From a virus (Duplodnaviria > Heunggongvirae > Uroviricota > Caudoviricetes): 50,155 nt of DNA. A program made the position numbers and the translations under genes. Under the pieces are notes generated by a model. It was not told where the DNA came from and ran no database searches. It saw only the letters and a list, made by a program, of their open reading frames with translations. Shown piece by piece: positions 34,951 through 45,435 of the stretch; positions within the stretch are counted from its first letter, which is position 1, and each line of letters starts with the position of its first letter. The stretch lies in IMG/VR virus record IMGVR_UViG_2870479586_000004; one strand, written 5' to 3'.

Positions 34951-34982
34951 AAAATAAAAACAAAAACCCGCCGAAGCGGGTT
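34951..34982 (-). terminator. intrinsic terminator downstream of hokD
   Basis: Minus-strand hairpin AACCCGC-TTCG-GCGGGTT followed by TTTTTGTTTTTATTTT. Confidence 0.7.
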
Positions 34983-35050
34983 AAGTGCGGGTGCGTTGAG
35001 GATGCCTGCCACATCAGAGGTGGCGAGGGATTTCTCCCCCGCCGGGTCTC

Positions 35051-35206
35051 TTACTCCTCAGGTTCGTAAGCTGTGAAGACAGCGACCTCCGTCTGGCCGG
35101 TTCGGATTCGTACCTCGCAGAGGTCTTTCCTCGTTACCAGTGCCGTCACTATGACGGTTAAACAGATGACGATCAGGGCGATTAACATCGCCTTTTGCTG
35201 CTTCAT
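35051..35206 (-). CDS. hokD: Hok-family type I toxin (host-killing small membrane protein), 51 aa
   Basis: Minus-strand translation MKQQKAMLIALIVICLTVIVTALVTRKDLCEVRIRTGQTEVAVFTAYEPEE matches recalled HokD/RelF; below the ORF-track size cutoff. Confidence 0.9.
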   Translation of the reverse strand: MKQQKAMLIALIVICLTVIVTALVTRKDLCEVRIRTGQTEVAVFTAYEPEE

Positions 35207-35277
35207 AGCCTGCTTCTCCTGTCAACGCAAAGCAGAAGTGTCACCTTCGGTGCGAAACAGAGATGTCATGCTTTGGT

Positions 35278-38447: not shown

Positions 38448-38594
38448 GAAAAATCCCCCAGAGAATTGTCTGGGGACATTTTAGAATGGTTCAAAGGGGA
38501 CATTACAGCTTGGTGTTAACAATAGCCTGCTTCTCCTGTGTAAGTTCACAGAGATATTGCAATTGCCTCCGGATAAGTAAGGGGAGATTGCACT

Positions 38595-39683
38595 ATGCAA
38601 ATGCAGCATCTGATGGTTGGCTATCCTAAGTACTACCAAACGGCCGATTATGCGTTGAGGCTTTCAGTGATGGCTGATATAGCAACAATGAGAATGAAGG
38701 CTCTGCACTTCTGGGATAAACACGGTATTTCTGCAGCTTCTGAAGCCTTTGGCGTGTCCTGCCGCACGCTTTACTGGTGGCGTCAGTTACTGAACAAGGA
38801 AGGACCTGAGGGGCTAATCCCGCACAGTAAGGCACCTCTGGTGCGACGAAAAAAACACTGGCATCCCGATGTGCTGAAAGAGATTCGACGCCTCAGGACA
38901 GAGCTGCCGAACCTCGGTAAAGAGCAGATTTTTGTTCGCCTGAAGCCCTGGTGCGAACAGCGCTATCTGGCCTGTCCGAGTGTTTCCACCATCGGCAGAA
39001 TGATCGCTGCCGCACATGATAAAATGCGGATGATACCTGTGCGTCTGGGATCGCGGGGGAAGGCACTGCTTGTCAAAAAGCGGTCTGCCAAACCCCGCAG
39101 GCCAAAGCACTACCGCCCGGTAAAGACAGGTGAGCTCATTGGGATGGACGCCATTGAGCTCAGAATGGGCGAACTGCGTCGCTATGTCATCACCATGATC
39201 GACGAATGCAGCAATTACGCGCTGGCACTGGCTGTGCCGTCACTCAACAGTGATATCGTCAATCACTTCTTCAGCCGCGCAGCCCGGTTGTTCCCGGTCG
39301 GTATCAGCCAGATAATCACAGATAACGGAAAAGAGTTCCTGGGAAACTTCGACAAAACGCTGCAGGAAGCCGCTATCAAACACCTCTGGACCTATCCCTA
39401 CACGCCAAAAATGAACGCTATCTGTGAACGTTTTAACCGGACGTTAAGAGAGCAGTTTATTGAATTTAATGAGATTTTACTCTTTGAAGATCTGGCGCTA
39501 TTTAACCAGAAGCTGGCGGAATATCTGGTGCTGTATAACAGCAAAAGACCCCACAAGGCGCTCGCACTAATGACGCCCGTGGAATATATTTTAAAAGAGA
39601 ATAAAAATTGCAATATGTGGTGGACCCATACATCTCCTTGCCTTTCGGCACGTAAGAGGCTAACCTACATGTGTCTGGCATGA
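38595..39683 (+). CDS. DDE transposase, rve family (IS481-like), 362 aa
   Basis: N-terminal HTH (FGVSCRTLYWWRQ), rve core (GMDAIEL...ITDNGKEF...NAICERFNRTLRE). Confidence 0.75.
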   Translation: MQMQHLMVGYPKYYQTADYALRLSVMADIATMRMKALHFWDKHGISAASEAFGVSCRTLYWWRQLLNKEGPEGLIPHSKAPLVRRKKHWHPDVLKEIRRLRTELPNLGKEQIFVRLKPWCEQRYLACPSVSTIGRMIAAAHDKMRMIPVRLGSRGKALLVKKRSAKPRRPKHYRPVKTGELIGMDAIELRMGELRRYVITMIDECSNYALALAVPSLNSDIVNHFFSRAARLFPVGISQIITDNGKEFLGNFDKTLQEAAIKHLWTYPYTPKMNAICERFNRTLREQFIEFNEILLFEDLALFNQKLAEYLVLYNSKRPHKALALMTPVEYILKENKNCNMWWTHTSPCLSARKRLTYMCLA

Positions 39684-39882
39684 AATTGGCCTCAGATTAA
39701 TGTTAAGCGTCTTGCAGGACGCGTAATGTTAACTGGGGCTTTTCTCTACCTGCCGTTGGTGTTCGTGCCCGAGGCAGATAGCCTCAAGCACCCGCAGTCA
39801 TTCTACTTAACTAAGATTTCCCCGCAAACCGTTTTTGTCCAGCACAGTAAATATCCAACTAAACCAATGGAGTTCGCTGTAT

Positions 39883-40062: not shown

Positions 40063-40316
40063 TATTCCTCCTACAATCAATGTGCAATTACATTTAAACA
40101 CACCTCAATTTGGCCGGACATATAAATATCTAAACCAGAAAAAATCACTTACATAGCGTTACAAACTCTTTAGTCTAAAGGTTCATCGTAAAACATTCCC
40201 CATACTTATCAGTCCGTTCCGCGCCAGGTAGCTCATTGCTTTATCTGGCAACCTGTAATCAGGTTTCCGCTTTTTCAGTTGGCTGGTCGTTTAACCGACA
40301 TAGTTAACCCATTAAT

Positions 40317-40604
40317 CTAGTTGCCGGATGTTGGTGGATTTTCGCGTTTTAGTTGTTCATAAAAGTGCACAGCTTTAACCAATTCTTCTGATGTAACCGG
40401 GACTGGTGAGGCAGTGAATAAGGCCTGAATTTGATAGTTCGGCCTGTCGTTACAATCCTCTTTTTTCGGTACATATTTCCAGTCACCAGACCACTACTTC
40501 CCCTGAAAGTCCGTAACGCCTTTTTTCACGTAGCGATATCGCCATGTCACTGGTTTTGCTTGCCCCGCCGTTTCATGCCCTTCCTGATAATTAATCTCGC
40601 TCAT
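40317..40604 (-). pseudogene. 95-codon reading frame with a single in-frame TAG (plus-strand 40494-40496); hypothetical
   Basis: ATG at 40604 then MSEINYQEGHETAGQAKPVTWRYRYVKKGVTDFQGK-TAG-WSGDWKYVPKKEDCNDRPNYQIQALFTASPVPVTSEELVKAVHFYEQLKRENPPTSGN; protein-like composition on both sides of the stop. Confidence 0.4.
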
Positions 40605-40792
40605 TCATCGCCCCACTCATCACAATATGCTTCGACCGGAGTTTTTCCCGCTTCATAGTCATCACGCTAGGATTCGACATCAGCAGCACTTCCACCGCGT
40701 AACTCACCATAGTCCATTAATAGTTCATCCCGCTCTTCAAAACTGATGTTATATTTAGCTGAACAAAAATCAGCCACTTTGTTCTTCCTCAT
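40601..40792 (-). pseudogene. 63-codon reading frame with a single in-frame TAG (plus-strand 40667-40669); hypothetical
   Basis: ATG at 40792 then MRKNKVADFCSAKYNISFEERDELLMDYGELRGGSAADVES-TAG-RDDYEAGKTPVEAYCDEWGDE; overlaps the start of the next frame. Confidence 0.35.
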
Positions 40793-41214
40793 CGTCTTTT
40801 ATTTCGTGGTATGAGTAATTGCAGTAGTTAAAGAAAATTTCTTATGCTCCGTCATGAATTTCATCAGGTGTTGCGTCATCGTCCACTTCGAATACATCCT
40901 CAAAATCTCCACCAGCTATTCCCGTTTCAATAATAATTTTGAACTTTCGCATTTCACTACCGCCCTTTCGGGCGGCCTCCTGATGTTCTGAGGGTGCAGA
41001 AATCCATCCGGTTAAGGATTAAGTTTTATTTACAGAACTGAATTTAATTATTCAGATATACGTATCTGTAACCTTACGAATCTACTCACTGGATGCCTCT
41101 TTCATAAAAATAATCCAGTGGGTTTTATCGTTTTTTCCCTGTTCGTTGACAGATAACAGGCTTTCTATCTGTCAGTGCCAGAATCTGGCTTACCGGTATT
41201 TGCGTTTCATTCCA

Positions 41215-41571
41215 TTAAAAAATCAGAACGCCGTGCGGCCTCAACACCCGAAAAGCTTCTTTAAATCTCTGTCGCAAATCATCACGCCAGGCATCTTTAT
41301 TCAGCCGTCCATATTTCTTTCCCATCCAGGCGTTATCACCAACACGCTCAAGATGCGGAGGGTCTAATACAACCATCGAAAAAGATGCGTCTGCAAATGA
41401 TAATGCACGAAAATCTGCGATAATGTCAGGGCTGATAATCAAGCGTCTCCCATTGCGTAATGTGTATCCTTCTTTTCTGATATCGCTAAATATCGCCCGT
41501 TCGTCAGACTTATCGAACCAGAACATGCGGCTGCCACAGCACATATCAAGAATGGTTGCCGGTGCACTCAC
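41215..41571 (-). CDS. SAM-dependent DNA methyltransferase-like protein, short or truncated (118 aa)
   Basis: Motif I-like ILDMCCGS, motif IV DPPH, then LRPHGVLIF; TAA stop at 41215-41217 is followed in frame by 29 further sense codons; start overlaps upstream stop (ATGA). Confidence 0.55.
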   Translation of the reverse strand: MSAPATILDMCCGSRMFWFDKSDERAIFSDIRKEGYTLRNGRRLIISPDIIADFRALSFADASFSMVVLDPPHLERVGDNAWMGKKYGRLNKDAWRDDLRQRFKEAFRVLRPHGVLIF

Positions 41572-41990
41572 TGCGCCACGTCCTGAAAATTACCCTGATA
41601 GAAAGCCAGTATGCGCTGCATAACTTCGCTCTTCCGGCACTCGCGACAGATTATGTTTAGGCGACTGTCGTAGCGACGTATTTCTCCGTCAGGTGATGAC
41701 CAGATAAGGTCCGGATCAACCACAGCAGGTTTCTTCACCTTTGCCCTCGAGAGTTTTTTGCGGGCGTTTTGCCAGTCCTTACGCGCCTGTTCAGAGGGGA
41801 ATAACCCGTAGCCGGAGTTGTATACATCGCCACTGGCTACCAGCTCTCTGGCAAGAACGCTCATCAGATATCTAGTCGCACCTGTTTTAGCTTCCAGTTG
41901 CCGTAACGTCTCACGGCCGCTCTGGCGCACGAGTTCCACCACCTGCCATTTAATTTTTTCCCGCTCTTCTTGTGTAAAAACTTTTGCCAC
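41568..41990 (-). CDS. hypothetical protein with probable winged-helix DNA-binding region, 140 aa
   Basis: ORF with basic, helix-rich sequence (TLRQLEAKTGATRYLMSVLARELVASGDV); translationally coupled to the methyltransferase ORF. Confidence 0.5.
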   Translation of the reverse strand: MAKVFTQEEREKIKWQVVELVRQSGRETLRQLEAKTGATRYLMSVLARELVASGDVYNSGYGLFPSEQARKDWQNARKKLSRAKVKKPAVVDPDLIWSSPDGEIRRYDSRLNIICRECRKSEVMQRILAFYQGNFQDVAQ

Positions 41991-42030: not shown

Positions 42031-42999
42031 TTATCCTCTGAAACCAGGCGGAATTTCTGTATCCGGTTCAGAAATATGATTAACACAACGCTGTACAGGT
42101 GAACGTCCCAGGCGGATGACCAGTTCGTCCCATTTTTCGCGGAGCTTTGACGGGCTCATGATGTTTTTTACCCAGAATGGATCTCGCTGAACCCGACCAA
42201 ACATTTCGCAAATTTGTCTGTGGCTTCTGCCATCCAGCATCCGCATTGTGCGCACGTCATTGGCCCAGGCAGTCCAGTTAGGCTCTTTTGGTCGCATGAT
42301 CTCGCCATCATCACTGGCTGCCTGTTCGTAGAGACCCACGATCCGCCCCCAGATCCACTGCGCACACGCCAAATCCTCCCTGCTACCCCACTGGCGTTTT
42401 TTCGCACTAAACACAACCGCGTCGGAGTTCCGGGTTAAAAAATCCTGTTCAGTCGTCTGCGGGTCCGGTTGCGAAGCTTCCGGACGAAAAGTGTTTTTAT
42501 TCTCTGTAGTAATCTCTGTTGTATTCTCTGTAAGATCATCAGGCCATTTTGACCCGATGACATTGGGTCGTTTTGAACCAATGGAGCGTTTCATTTTGAC
42601 CTCTTCCATCGTGTCATTTTGACCTGATGGAGCGGCGCATTTTGAACCGATGGATTCGCTCAATTTGCCACCATCTAAAAGCTCGCTCCCATAGTTGATC
42701 GTGTAGAAATTGGTCATATCGCGCTTTGATTTATTGAGCTTTTCACAACGCAAAAGCCCCAGCGTTTTCAGACTTGCAAACGCGCGCTTTAACGTTGACT
42801 CTGACCAGAATGGGAACTGTTCCAGCCATTGTTCCGTTGTGTTATAAATCCAGCGAACACCATCACATTCCATGCCGGAGTTGGTATCTCTCAACCAGTA
42901 GTGCAGTTGTTGCAAAACAATGGCTTCGTTTAAGCCAATTTTCATTGCCAGCTGCGTGTTTATAACCAGTGGGCGTTCAGCAAAAAGAAGGCTCATAAT
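42031..42999 (-). CDS. putative phage replication protein (replisome-organiser-like N-terminal winged-helix region), about 322 aa from ATG 42999
   Basis: N-terminus MSLLFAERPLVINTQLAMKIGLNEAIVLQQLHYWL...; in the lambda O position of the early rightward operon. Confidence 0.5.
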   Translation of the reverse strand: MMSLLFAERPLVINTQLAMKIGLNEAIVLQQLHYWLRDTNSGMECDGVRWIYNTTEQWLEQFPFWSESTLKRAFASLKTLGLLRCEKLNKSKRDMTNFYTINYGSELLDGGKLSESIGSKCAAPSGQNDTMEEVKMKRSIGSKRPNVIGSKWPDDLTENTTEITTENKNTFRPEASQPDPQTTEQDFLTRNSDAVVFSAKKRQWGSREDLACAQWIWGRIVGLYEQAASDDGEIMRPKEPNWTAWANDVRTMRMLDGRSHRQICEMFGRVQRDPFWVKNIMSPSKLREKWDELVIRLGRSPVQRCVNHISEPDTEIPPGFRG

Positions 43000-43498
43000 T
43001 CCATCCAGCTTTTTGTTGGTATTGCTGTCGATACGCAAGCTTGAAAGCAATTGCTTTTTCTATAAGTTCGTCAGTTTCACGATCCACTACGGCAGGATCA
43101 GCAAAAAGCAGTCCGGACTCCACCACATCGCCATATTCTTTGTTTAACCCGGCGATCATGCACGTGATGCTTTTTCCGTCAGTAATTTCACGATACAACC
43201 TGAAATCACTAATCCGGATAGCCTCCATAATCGCAGGCACTAGCGCCGTGAACTTTTCACGCTTATCCCTGGTGTCGATAGCCTTCCAGCGTTCGAATAT
43301 CTTCACTCGATTAACACCAAGCGCTCGCTGATCAACCGCGCCACCTTCATCTGTGACACGCTGAACATCGATGTTCGGGCGCTCTTTCAAAGCCCAGAAT
43401 GCTTCAGTGATTAATATCGTCGCCTGCTCCTGTGTCATTCCTGGTCGACATATCCAGGCATCCAGAGCCTCACGAGCCTGTTCAGGAGTGATTTTCAT
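42977..43498 (-). CDS. hypothetical early-operon protein, 173 aa (CII position)
   Basis: ORF immediately downstream of the Cro-like gene; no family recognised with confidence. Confidence 0.5.
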   Translation of the reverse strand: MKITPEQAREALDAWICRPGMTQEQATILITEAFWALKERPNIDVQRVTDEGGAVDQRALGVNRVKIFERWKAIDTRDKREKFTALVPAIMEAIRISDFRLYREITDGKSITCMIAGLNKEYGDVVESGLLFADPAVVDRETDELIEKAIAFKLAYRQQYQQKAGWNYEPSFC

Positions 43499-43709
43499 TG
43501 TTCAACCGCCCCGCCCGCTTCGTCTTACGATATTCGTCATAAACCTTGGGATCATACTGAAGCTCGCCGCCAGATGCCTCCTGTAGACGCATCGCGCGAC
43601 CTTCAGGAACCAGCTCTTGCCATTGAGAAACAGCAGATGGGTCAACGCCAGCAGCTTTCGCTACTTTGGCTTTCGTACCGTAAAAATTAATTACGTCTGA
43701 TTTAAACAT
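43482..43709 (-). CDS. dicC: Cro-like small HTH regulator (DicC/YdaS-like), 75 aa from ATG 43709
   Basis: GGAGG 6 nt upstream of ATG 43709; MFKSDVINFYGTKAKVAKAAGVDPSAVSQWQELVPEG...; divergent from the CI-like gene. Confidence 0.6.
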   Translation of the reverse strand: MFKSDVINFYGTKAKVAKAAGVDPSAVSQWQELVPEGRAMRLQEASGGELQYDPKVYDEYRKTKRAGRLNNENHS

Positions 43710-43722
43710 CGCACCTCCAATA

Positions 43723-43736
43723 TTGAGTTTTCTCAA
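43723..43736. promoter_or_regulatory. palindromic operator-like site TTGAGTTTTCTCAA in the dicC/dicA divergent control region
   Basis: Perfect 14-bp palindrome between the divergent repressor genes; near-identical copy at 44258-44270. Confidence 0.5.
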
Positions 43737-43786
43737 TGCTAATCACTCAAGGAATCTCAAGTCAAGGGTTATTAAGATATCTAAAT

Positions 43787-44193
43787 ATGAACGAGAAAAC
43801 TTTAGGTCAACGCATTAGAGAAAGACGTAAGCAGGTAGGCTTAAGTCAAAACGGTTTAAGCAAAGCTGCTGGCGTATCTGGCTCATCAATTTCATTATGG
43901 GAAAGTGACCATACAGCCCCGCGCGGGCAAAATTTGCATCGCCTCGCCGAGGTATTGCAATGTTCACCAACCTGGATACTGTTTGGCGACGAGGACAAAA
44001 CACCAGCTCCCCTGTTTCACTCGATAGTGCCTTAGACTTATCGGAAGATGAGTTAGAGATGCTGCGTTTGTATCGCGCACTTCCTAAATCAGAGCAACAA
44101 GCACAACTCAGCGAACTCCGCGCCCGCGTTGAGAATTTTAATCGCCTGTTCACCGAGCTATTAGAGGCTCGCAAACGCAACAAGCATCAATAA
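43787..44193 (+). pseudogene. dicA: CI-like XRE-family HTH repressor (DicA-like), frame broken by an apparent 1-nt deletion in the C4 run at 44009-44012
   Basis: 43787-44035 encodes the HTH domain (...VLQCSPTWILFGDEDKTPAP); 43960-44193 encodes the C-terminal part (...EDELEMLRLYRALPKSEQQAQLSELRARVENFNRLFTELLEARKRNKHQ); 407 nt versus 408 for 135 codons plus stop. Confidence 0.75.
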
Positions 44194-44257
44194 TCATCCC
44201 TTCACAAAATTTTAAAGCCTTACATTTCAATGTATTGGCTTTATCTTGCGCCAATAC

Positions 44258-44309
44258 TTGAGTTTTCTCATCAAAAAACCTTGACGAAAAACAATGAGAA
44301 AACTAAATT
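44258..44309 (+). promoter_or_regulatory. promoter of the ydfA-dicB operon (TTGACG-N17-TAAATT) with flanking operator copies
   Basis: -35 at 44281-44286, -10 at 44304-44309; operator TTGAGTTTTCTCA at 44258-44270 and partial inverse copy TGAGAAAACT at 44295-44304. Confidence 0.55.
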
Positions 44310-44385
44310 ACCTCCATCAAGACACCGCACGGTGTTCTCAGCAAACAGTTCCGCTACCCCGGCGTTAAGGGGAAATGAGGTCAGC

Positions 44386-45377: not shown

Positions 45378-45435
45378 TTTCTGGTGACGTTTGGCGGTAT
45401 CAGTTTTACTCCGTGACTGCTCTGCCGCCGTTTTT
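45378..45435 (+). ncRNA. dicF: DicF small RNA (ftsZ-targeting antisense sRNA) within the dicB operon
   Basis: TTTCTGGTGACGTTTGGCGGTATCAGTTTTACTCCGTGACTGCTCTGCCGCCG followed by TTTTT matches recalled DicF almost exactly; upstream of dicB. Confidence 0.8.

Follow-up and report, generated by a model that had tools for sequence, protein, structure and literature searches.

The 50,155-nucleotide stretch of DNA analysed here (the window) is a Qin-type lambdoid prophage of Escherichia coli, with its early-right genes on the minus strand. It is colinear over its whole length, in reversed orientation, with a 48.7-kb record named "Escherichia phage PhiR42_1", and its segment 39633-43610 shares 99.7% identity with the Qin region of E. 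coli IAI1. The order dicA, dicC, YdaT-family gene, O-like replication gene, and DUF977 gene is common to the window, IAI1, and PhiR42_1, and an Rfam scan of the window returned the DicF RNA (45379-45430), two cspA-type leaders, and one sok RNA. The replication genes, namely the O-like gene (42031-43050, minus strand) and the DUF977 gene (41568-41990, minus strand), are followed by a small phage DNA methyltransferase gene, and then by a cassette of three genes, for a DUF7167 protein, for an acidic protein of 58 aa, and for a third product that is variable. In the window, these four genes, all on the minus strand, are decayed and make up the block 40183-41571, flanked on one side by the replication genes and, further downstream, by the Q antiterminator gene. 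No known RNA family was detected by the Rfam scan within this block, the nearest being the sok RNA at 39627-39793, and a consensus scan for promoters and terminators gave a result no richer than that of shuffled sequence.

To describe the four genes, their read-through translations were scanned against protein families with an X at each stop, and 20 loci (19 regions, PhiR42_1 being represented twice) were fetched from E. coli genomes and phages for comparison. All four translations match phage protein families over their stops in Pfam or PHROG.

The first gene (41082..41571, minus strand) is a methyltransferase pseudogene, identified by its match to phrog_954 and by DNA alignment; the enzyme that it once encoded was small, SAM-dependent, and probably of the DNA amino type. 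It starts at a GTG (41569-41571) overlapping the DUF977 stop, and its open reading frame (41215..41571) is closed by a TAA at 41215-41217, where codon 119 has changed from AAA. Exactly 29 in-frame sense codons follow, as the first-pass annotation had stated, before a second TAA at 41125-41127. Besides this stop, a 1-nt insertion in a G/A run (41128-41139) shifts the frame, so that the final 19 codons of the ancestral gene fall out of frame; the intact 175-aa gene of the Stx2c phage Stx2c_EH0430 holds AAA at the stop site and has a G/A run that is shorter by one base, and removing the extra base restores these 19 codons (KTHWIIFMKE...) up to the ancestral stop, TAG 41082-41084. The read-through matches phrog_954 ("DNA methyltransferase") with an E-value of 8e-74 over residues 4-147, spanning the stop, and a tblastn search with it retrieved 244 phage records covering at least 80% of the query, while the Pfam methyltransferase models scored at or below threshold. 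The small phage methyltransferases of phrog_954, such as those of Stx2c_EH0430, Klebsiella ST846-OXA48phi9.2, and Salmonella vB_SosS_Oslo, share 79-86% protein identity with the window copy over residues 1-147, as well as the DMCCGS and DPPH motifs. Unlike them, however, the window copy carries the TAA at codon 119 and the frameshift before the last 19 codons. The truncated 118-aa frame retains both motifs, predicted from the translation to correspond to the SAM-binding motif I (DMCCGS) and to motif IV (DPPH). A PDB sequence search with the intact protein as query found no related solved structure.

The same 118-aa frame is treated in different ways in existing records. In SL112 and KE58 (loci L013 and L014, positions 130-486, corresponding to 41215-41571 of the window), it is annotated as the intact protein WP_001310834.1, whereas in IAI1, Z1323CEC0015, and E275a it is called a pseudogene. 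The RefSeq annotation of this frame is thus inconsistent, and WP_001310834.1, a "class I SAM-dependent methyltransferase" of 118 aa in some RefSeq genomes, is to be regarded as a truncated remnant. Since the motifs are kept and WP_001310834.1 is called intact, the fragment might conceivably hold some residual activity.

The second gene is a 60-codon DUF7167 pseudogene (40770..40952, minus strand; PF23768, phrog_1997) that had been overlooked in the first-pass annotation. Its frame 40842..40952 (36 aa) ends at a TAA (40842-40844), derived from the AAA codon of Lys37, and remains open for 23 codons more. The read-through scores 49.2 bits against PF23768 (gathering threshold, 24.4), with residues 2-53 aligned to positions 1-60 of the 60-position profile, and matches phrog_1997 over residues 1-57 (E 3e-28), both matches spanning the stop. 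At the position of this stop, nine relatives hold AAA. Sequence and alignment reveal a short GC hairpin with a GAAA loop (CCGCCC-GAAA-GGGCGG; 40959..40977, minus strand), lying 7 nt ahead of the DUF7167 start codon and with a GGAGG motif on its other side. This hairpin is kept in all relatives and sits at a mosaic boundary where the upstream gene varies among prophages; its predicted fold is not significant when compared to shuffled sequences (z = -1.7). A further disrupted copy of this gene was observed in the Rac prophage of strain 442/2 (locus L005, 1553-1735), whose DUF7167 begins with ATA and is interrupted by a TGA.

The third decayed frame (40601..40777, minus strand; phrog_519) is a pseudogene of a conserved acidic 58-aa protein; it shares 8 nt with DUF7167 and an ATGA with the gene that follows. 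Two lesions affect it: the start codon has changed from ATG to GTG (40775-40777), and the TGG codon of Trp37 has become a TAG (40667-40669), relatives holding ATG and TGG at these positions. The frame that ends at this TAG (40667..40792, 41 aa) is followed by 21 further codons up to a TGA at 40601-40603, and the read-through matches phrog_519 across the stop (E 2e-11). The first-pass annotation located this stop correctly, but not the start: the ATG that it proposed (40790-40792) lies five codons upstream of the ancestral one. In the window lineage only, the conserved Trp16 has also changed to Arg, and the altered start codon corresponds to a change of Met1 to Val. A TAG at the same Trp37 codon was found in the phage vB_EcoM-606R7 (locus L004, 1777-1963), with different flanking sequence, as an independent disruption.

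The variable third gene of the cassette (40183..40604, minus strand) was delimited by its match to phrog_660 and by alignment with intact 171-aa and 119-aa versions, intact relatives ranging from 104 to 171 aa. Judged by its sequence, it is the most heavily decayed of the four. Its frame 40494..40604 (36 aa) ends at codon 37, a TAG that reads cta on the plus strand (40494-40496), where relatives hold CAG, CCG, or CTG, and 58 further codons lead to a second TAG (40317-40319), derived from CAG. Near 40329-40330, 90 nt have been deleted in frame between two AATCCACCA repeats, a 4-nt deletion lies near 40285-40286, and further stops, TGA included, are found at 40275-40277 and beyond; the ancestral stop is the TGA at 40183-40185. 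The read-through nevertheless matches phrog_660 over residues 2-93, across the first stop, with an E-value of 5e-28. In the phage 640R1 (locus L003, 1950-2207) and in strain 219 (locus L008, 1597-1913), the third gene holds a homopolymer of eight A residues instead of six, a frameshift of +2 A; since A8 replaces A6, the annotated 85-aa open reading frame of 640R1 is a frameshift product rather than the real protein.

The picture obtained from these four genes agrees in part with what had been noticed at first. The coding strand (minus) and the stops at 40494-40496, 40667-40669, and 41215-41217 were placed exactly, and so was the lack of any open reading frame of at least 60 aa on the coding strand, where none of the minus-strand frames in 40102-41214 exceeds 45 aa. 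On the other hand, three interrupted frames had been counted instead of four, and the view that they are interrupted only by stop codons does not hold for three of the four, which also bear the methyltransferase insertion, the lost ATG of the 58-codon gene, or the deletions of the third gene. The proposed contrast between nonsense mutations here and frameshifts elsewhere fails for the same reason, as frameshifts and deletions are also present. The region had also been described as "nin-like". Its position supports this description, since in lambda the genes ninA-ninI, located between P and Q, occupy the same place and are likewise small, dispensable early-right genes, from the replication genes to Q. 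However, the resemblance is positional only: when the read-through products and their intact relatives were scanned with Pfam, only DUF7167 and weak methyltransferase matches were returned, and none to NinA-NinI.

Intact counterparts of the cassette are found in related prophages at approximately 88-93% identity, with open reading frames of 60, 58, and 104-171 aa, the intact 175-aa methyltransferase being that of the Stx2c phage. They are exemplified by WP_001224672.1, WP_000753060.1, and WP_033814887.1 (CFIAFB20190157), as well as by the cassettes of vB_EcoS-640R1, vB_EcoM-606R7, and Rac. The window and these relatives are alike in gene order, in the 8-nt and ATGA overlaps, in the upstream hairpin, and in a DNA identity of about 90%, but the relatives differ in having sense codons at the stop positions, an ATG start in the 58-aa gene, and signs of purifying selection. 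Sense codons were thus found in related prophages at each of the stops, and they are one substitution away from those of the window: AAA to TAA in both the methyltransferase and DUF7167 genes, TGG to TAG in the 58-aa gene, and, among the three codons of the third gene, CAG to TAG. As for what these proteins do, Pfam and NCBIfam give nothing beyond DUF7167. The intact cassette is conserved and constrained in the relatives, and might deserve to be studied for itself.

The stops are widely distributed, and roughly 2,500 E. coli genomes match the locus. All eight closely related copies that were inspected share them: every stop is present in IAI1, PhiR42_1, SL112, KE58, and Z1323CEC0015, and in WG5 wherever the region is retained. 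Among 5,426 complete E. coli genomes, the 57-mer centred on the TAG at 40667 is found identical in 496, and that centred on the TAG at 40494 in 880. For the DUF7167 stop, 106 genomes hold an identical 57-mer and 498 hold it with one or two differences, counts that are ambiguous because a nearby GAT/GAG polymorphism splits the lineage; of two copies inspected from the class with one or two mismatches, that of strain 1303 belongs to this lineage and is annotated with an internal stop, while that of FORC_041 corresponds to a more distant prophage in which the gene is intact.

The decay of these genes is already on record in the public annotation. In the Qin-type prophage of IAI1 (ECIAI1_RS08200, RS25915, and RS25525), whose DNA is identical to the window over 40440-41000 and carries the same stops, PGAP describes the methyltransferase as "frameshifted; internal stop", DUF7167 as "internal stop", and the third gene, a hypothetical protein, as "frameshifted; internal stop"; the remnant of the 58-codon gene (40601-40777) is left unannotated. 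Matching annotations are found in other genomes. RefSeq also flags as interrupted the DUF7167 and third-gene remnants of strain 1303, and those of the methyltransferase and the third gene in E275a. These pseudogenes in identical copies indicate a real but ordinary case of prophage decay that is already known. One review (PMC6379469) gives general background on how Qin prophages have degraded in E. coli at large, and the literature search found nothing on these particular genes and no paper on PhiR42_1.

Errors of sequencing or assembly, or chance frames without any gene, could be invoked on account of the homopolymer lesions reported elsewhere in the window and the shortness of each open reading frame, but this possibility is practically nil: the stops are substitutions rather than homopolymer indels and recur unchanged in hundreds of complete genomes that were sequenced independently, and the family matches that span them (E-values from 8e-74 to 2e-11), together with the intact frames that cross the same positions in relatives, rule out chance.

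The DUF7167 and 58-aa genes provide a measure of the selection acting on the cassette. Among intact relatives, their dN/dS ratios range from 0.03 to 0.11, and both genes are under strong purifying selection there. Against the window, the ratios rise to 0.12-0.27; as these values are still lower than 1, the decay must be recent when set against the time since the sampled relatives diverged. For these two genes only, lineage-specific changes were then counted as codon states that occur in the window lineage but in none of the relatives sampled. In DUF7167, three such changes are non-synonymous and one is synonymous, besides the stop, and the 58-aa gene has nine non-synonymous and four synonymous ones. 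The resulting total of 12 non-synonymous to 5 synonymous changes, plus the stops, is based on small numbers, but it compares to 1-3 non-synonymous versus 7-16 synonymous changes in most intact pairs; it is near-neutral, close to unconstrained change, as neutral drift predicts. The number of stops can be evaluated in a similar way. About 4-6% of random substitutions in these two genes would create a stop, so that approximately one is expected from about 21-25 substitutions, compared to the two observed (P about 0.3). Since the stop count fits drift, nothing beyond relaxed selection is needed to account for it.

Taken together, these data argue very strongly for a genuine pseudogenisation, as the first-pass annotation had already considered likely, in which the four genes have been lost through inherited stops, indels, and the loss of a start codon under relaxed selection and drift; homologues for every read-through, sense codons in relatives, shared stops, and RefSeq pseudogenes all point in this direction. 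In related prophages, the four genes are intact and seem to be translationally coupled and under purifying selection; according to this model, in the lineage of the window they were no longer needed and have drifted. Single-base changes generated the stops, from AAA to TAA twice, from TGG to TAG once, and most simply from CAG to TAG in the remaining case, alongside the lost ATG, the 1-nt insertion, and the 4-nt and 90-nt deletions, and these lesions are inherited rather than introduced by sequencing errors. The gene products are most likely non-functional fragments, and we infer from the sequence both the loss of function and the absence of full-length expression.

The lesions do not seem to be of the same age. 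The TAG of the third gene is also present in strains AST240 and 219 and in phage 640R1, more distant prophages that retain DUF7167 and the 58-aa gene in intact form, and for this reason it would be either an older lesion than the stops of these two genes or one spread by recombination. If the sharing of third-gene lesions with more distant prophages is taken as a sign of age, these would precede the DUF7167 and 58-aa stops. The locus offers a clean example of prophage decay at an early stage, and one that can be dated. In practical terms, the short open reading frames in 40183-41571 should not be called genes, although the importance of the locus beyond annotation is little.

An adaptive origin of the inactivation has also been considered. 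The cassette, a conserved and constrained early module of lambdoid phages, could be devoted to anti-defence or host takeover, a role proposed because small acidic proteins might suggest it, and its repeated inactivation in Qin and Rac would then reflect host selection against a costly function; we see only a slim chance of this. A more general version, in which the lysogen pays a cost for, or is poisoned by, the cassette or the methyltransferase, so that knock-outs are favoured during prophage domestication, has a very slim one. All four adjacent genes are affected, and recurrent, independent disruptions are known, such as the TAG at the Trp codon in 606R7, the ATA start and TGA of the Rac DUF7167, and the +2 A frameshift in the third gene of 640R1 and 219. 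The first of these, with the same codon altered in a different flank, could hint at selection for inactivation over pure drift. However, TGG is unusually prone to become a stop, as two of its nine possible changes, both of them transitions, have this effect; moreover, the stop count matches the neutral expectation, and all the genes are preserved intact in many prophages.

Finally, the first-pass annotation had raised the caveat that the genes might be amber-suppressible. The 58-aa and third genes, which are both interrupted by TAG and whose codons beyond the stop are still protein-like, would then remain functional through low-level natural read-through of UAG or through a host amber suppressor tRNA. 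In E. coli, a C placed after UAG makes for a comparatively leaky stop, and the TAG of the 58-aa gene recurs in phage 606R7. Nevertheless, this explanation is very unlikely indeed. The TAG codons are derived rather than conserved, with divergent relatives holding sense codons; programmed read-through would be expected to show a stop conserved among divergent homologues and constraint downstream of it, and neither is seen here. Furthermore, the ATG start and a conserved Trp are gone from the 58-aa gene, which has undergone nine lineage-specific amino-acid changes, in line with the neutral pattern described above, while the third gene, downstream of its TAG, accumulates a second TAG, TGA stops, the 4-nt frameshift, and the 90-nt deletion. 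Suppression would not restore the set either, because only half of the four primary stops are TAG, the other two being TAA, and the neighbouring genes that bear the latter, one with a frameshift in addition, are beyond the rescue of an amber suppressor. ARAGORN found no tRNA gene in the 50-kb window, and hence no cognate suppressor encoded by the element.

Several other features of the window distinguish it from its closest relatives. An IS481-family insertion sequence occupies 38538-39632 and is absent at that site from both IAI1 and PhiR42_1. Its transposase frame (38595-39683, 362 aa) reaches 221 bits against an NCBIfam cut-off of 224, and in IAI1 coordinates 6 bp are common to both flanks, suggestive of a target-site duplication.

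Adjacent to it, the sok antisense RNA and hok leader at 39627-39793 (RF01794, 100 bits) are separated from the coding part of hokD (34982-35220) by approximately 4.4 kb of inserted DNA that contains IS elements and flxA/relBE, while in relatives both parts are contiguous. A related rearrangement of hokD by relBE has been described in Qin (PMC6379469).

On the other side of the replication genes, the immunity region 43611-44314, which includes a minus-strand open reading frame (43815-44183), does not align to IAI1 or PhiR42_1, and both of its flanks are 99% identical to them; the repressor or immunity allele present in the window is probably a different one.
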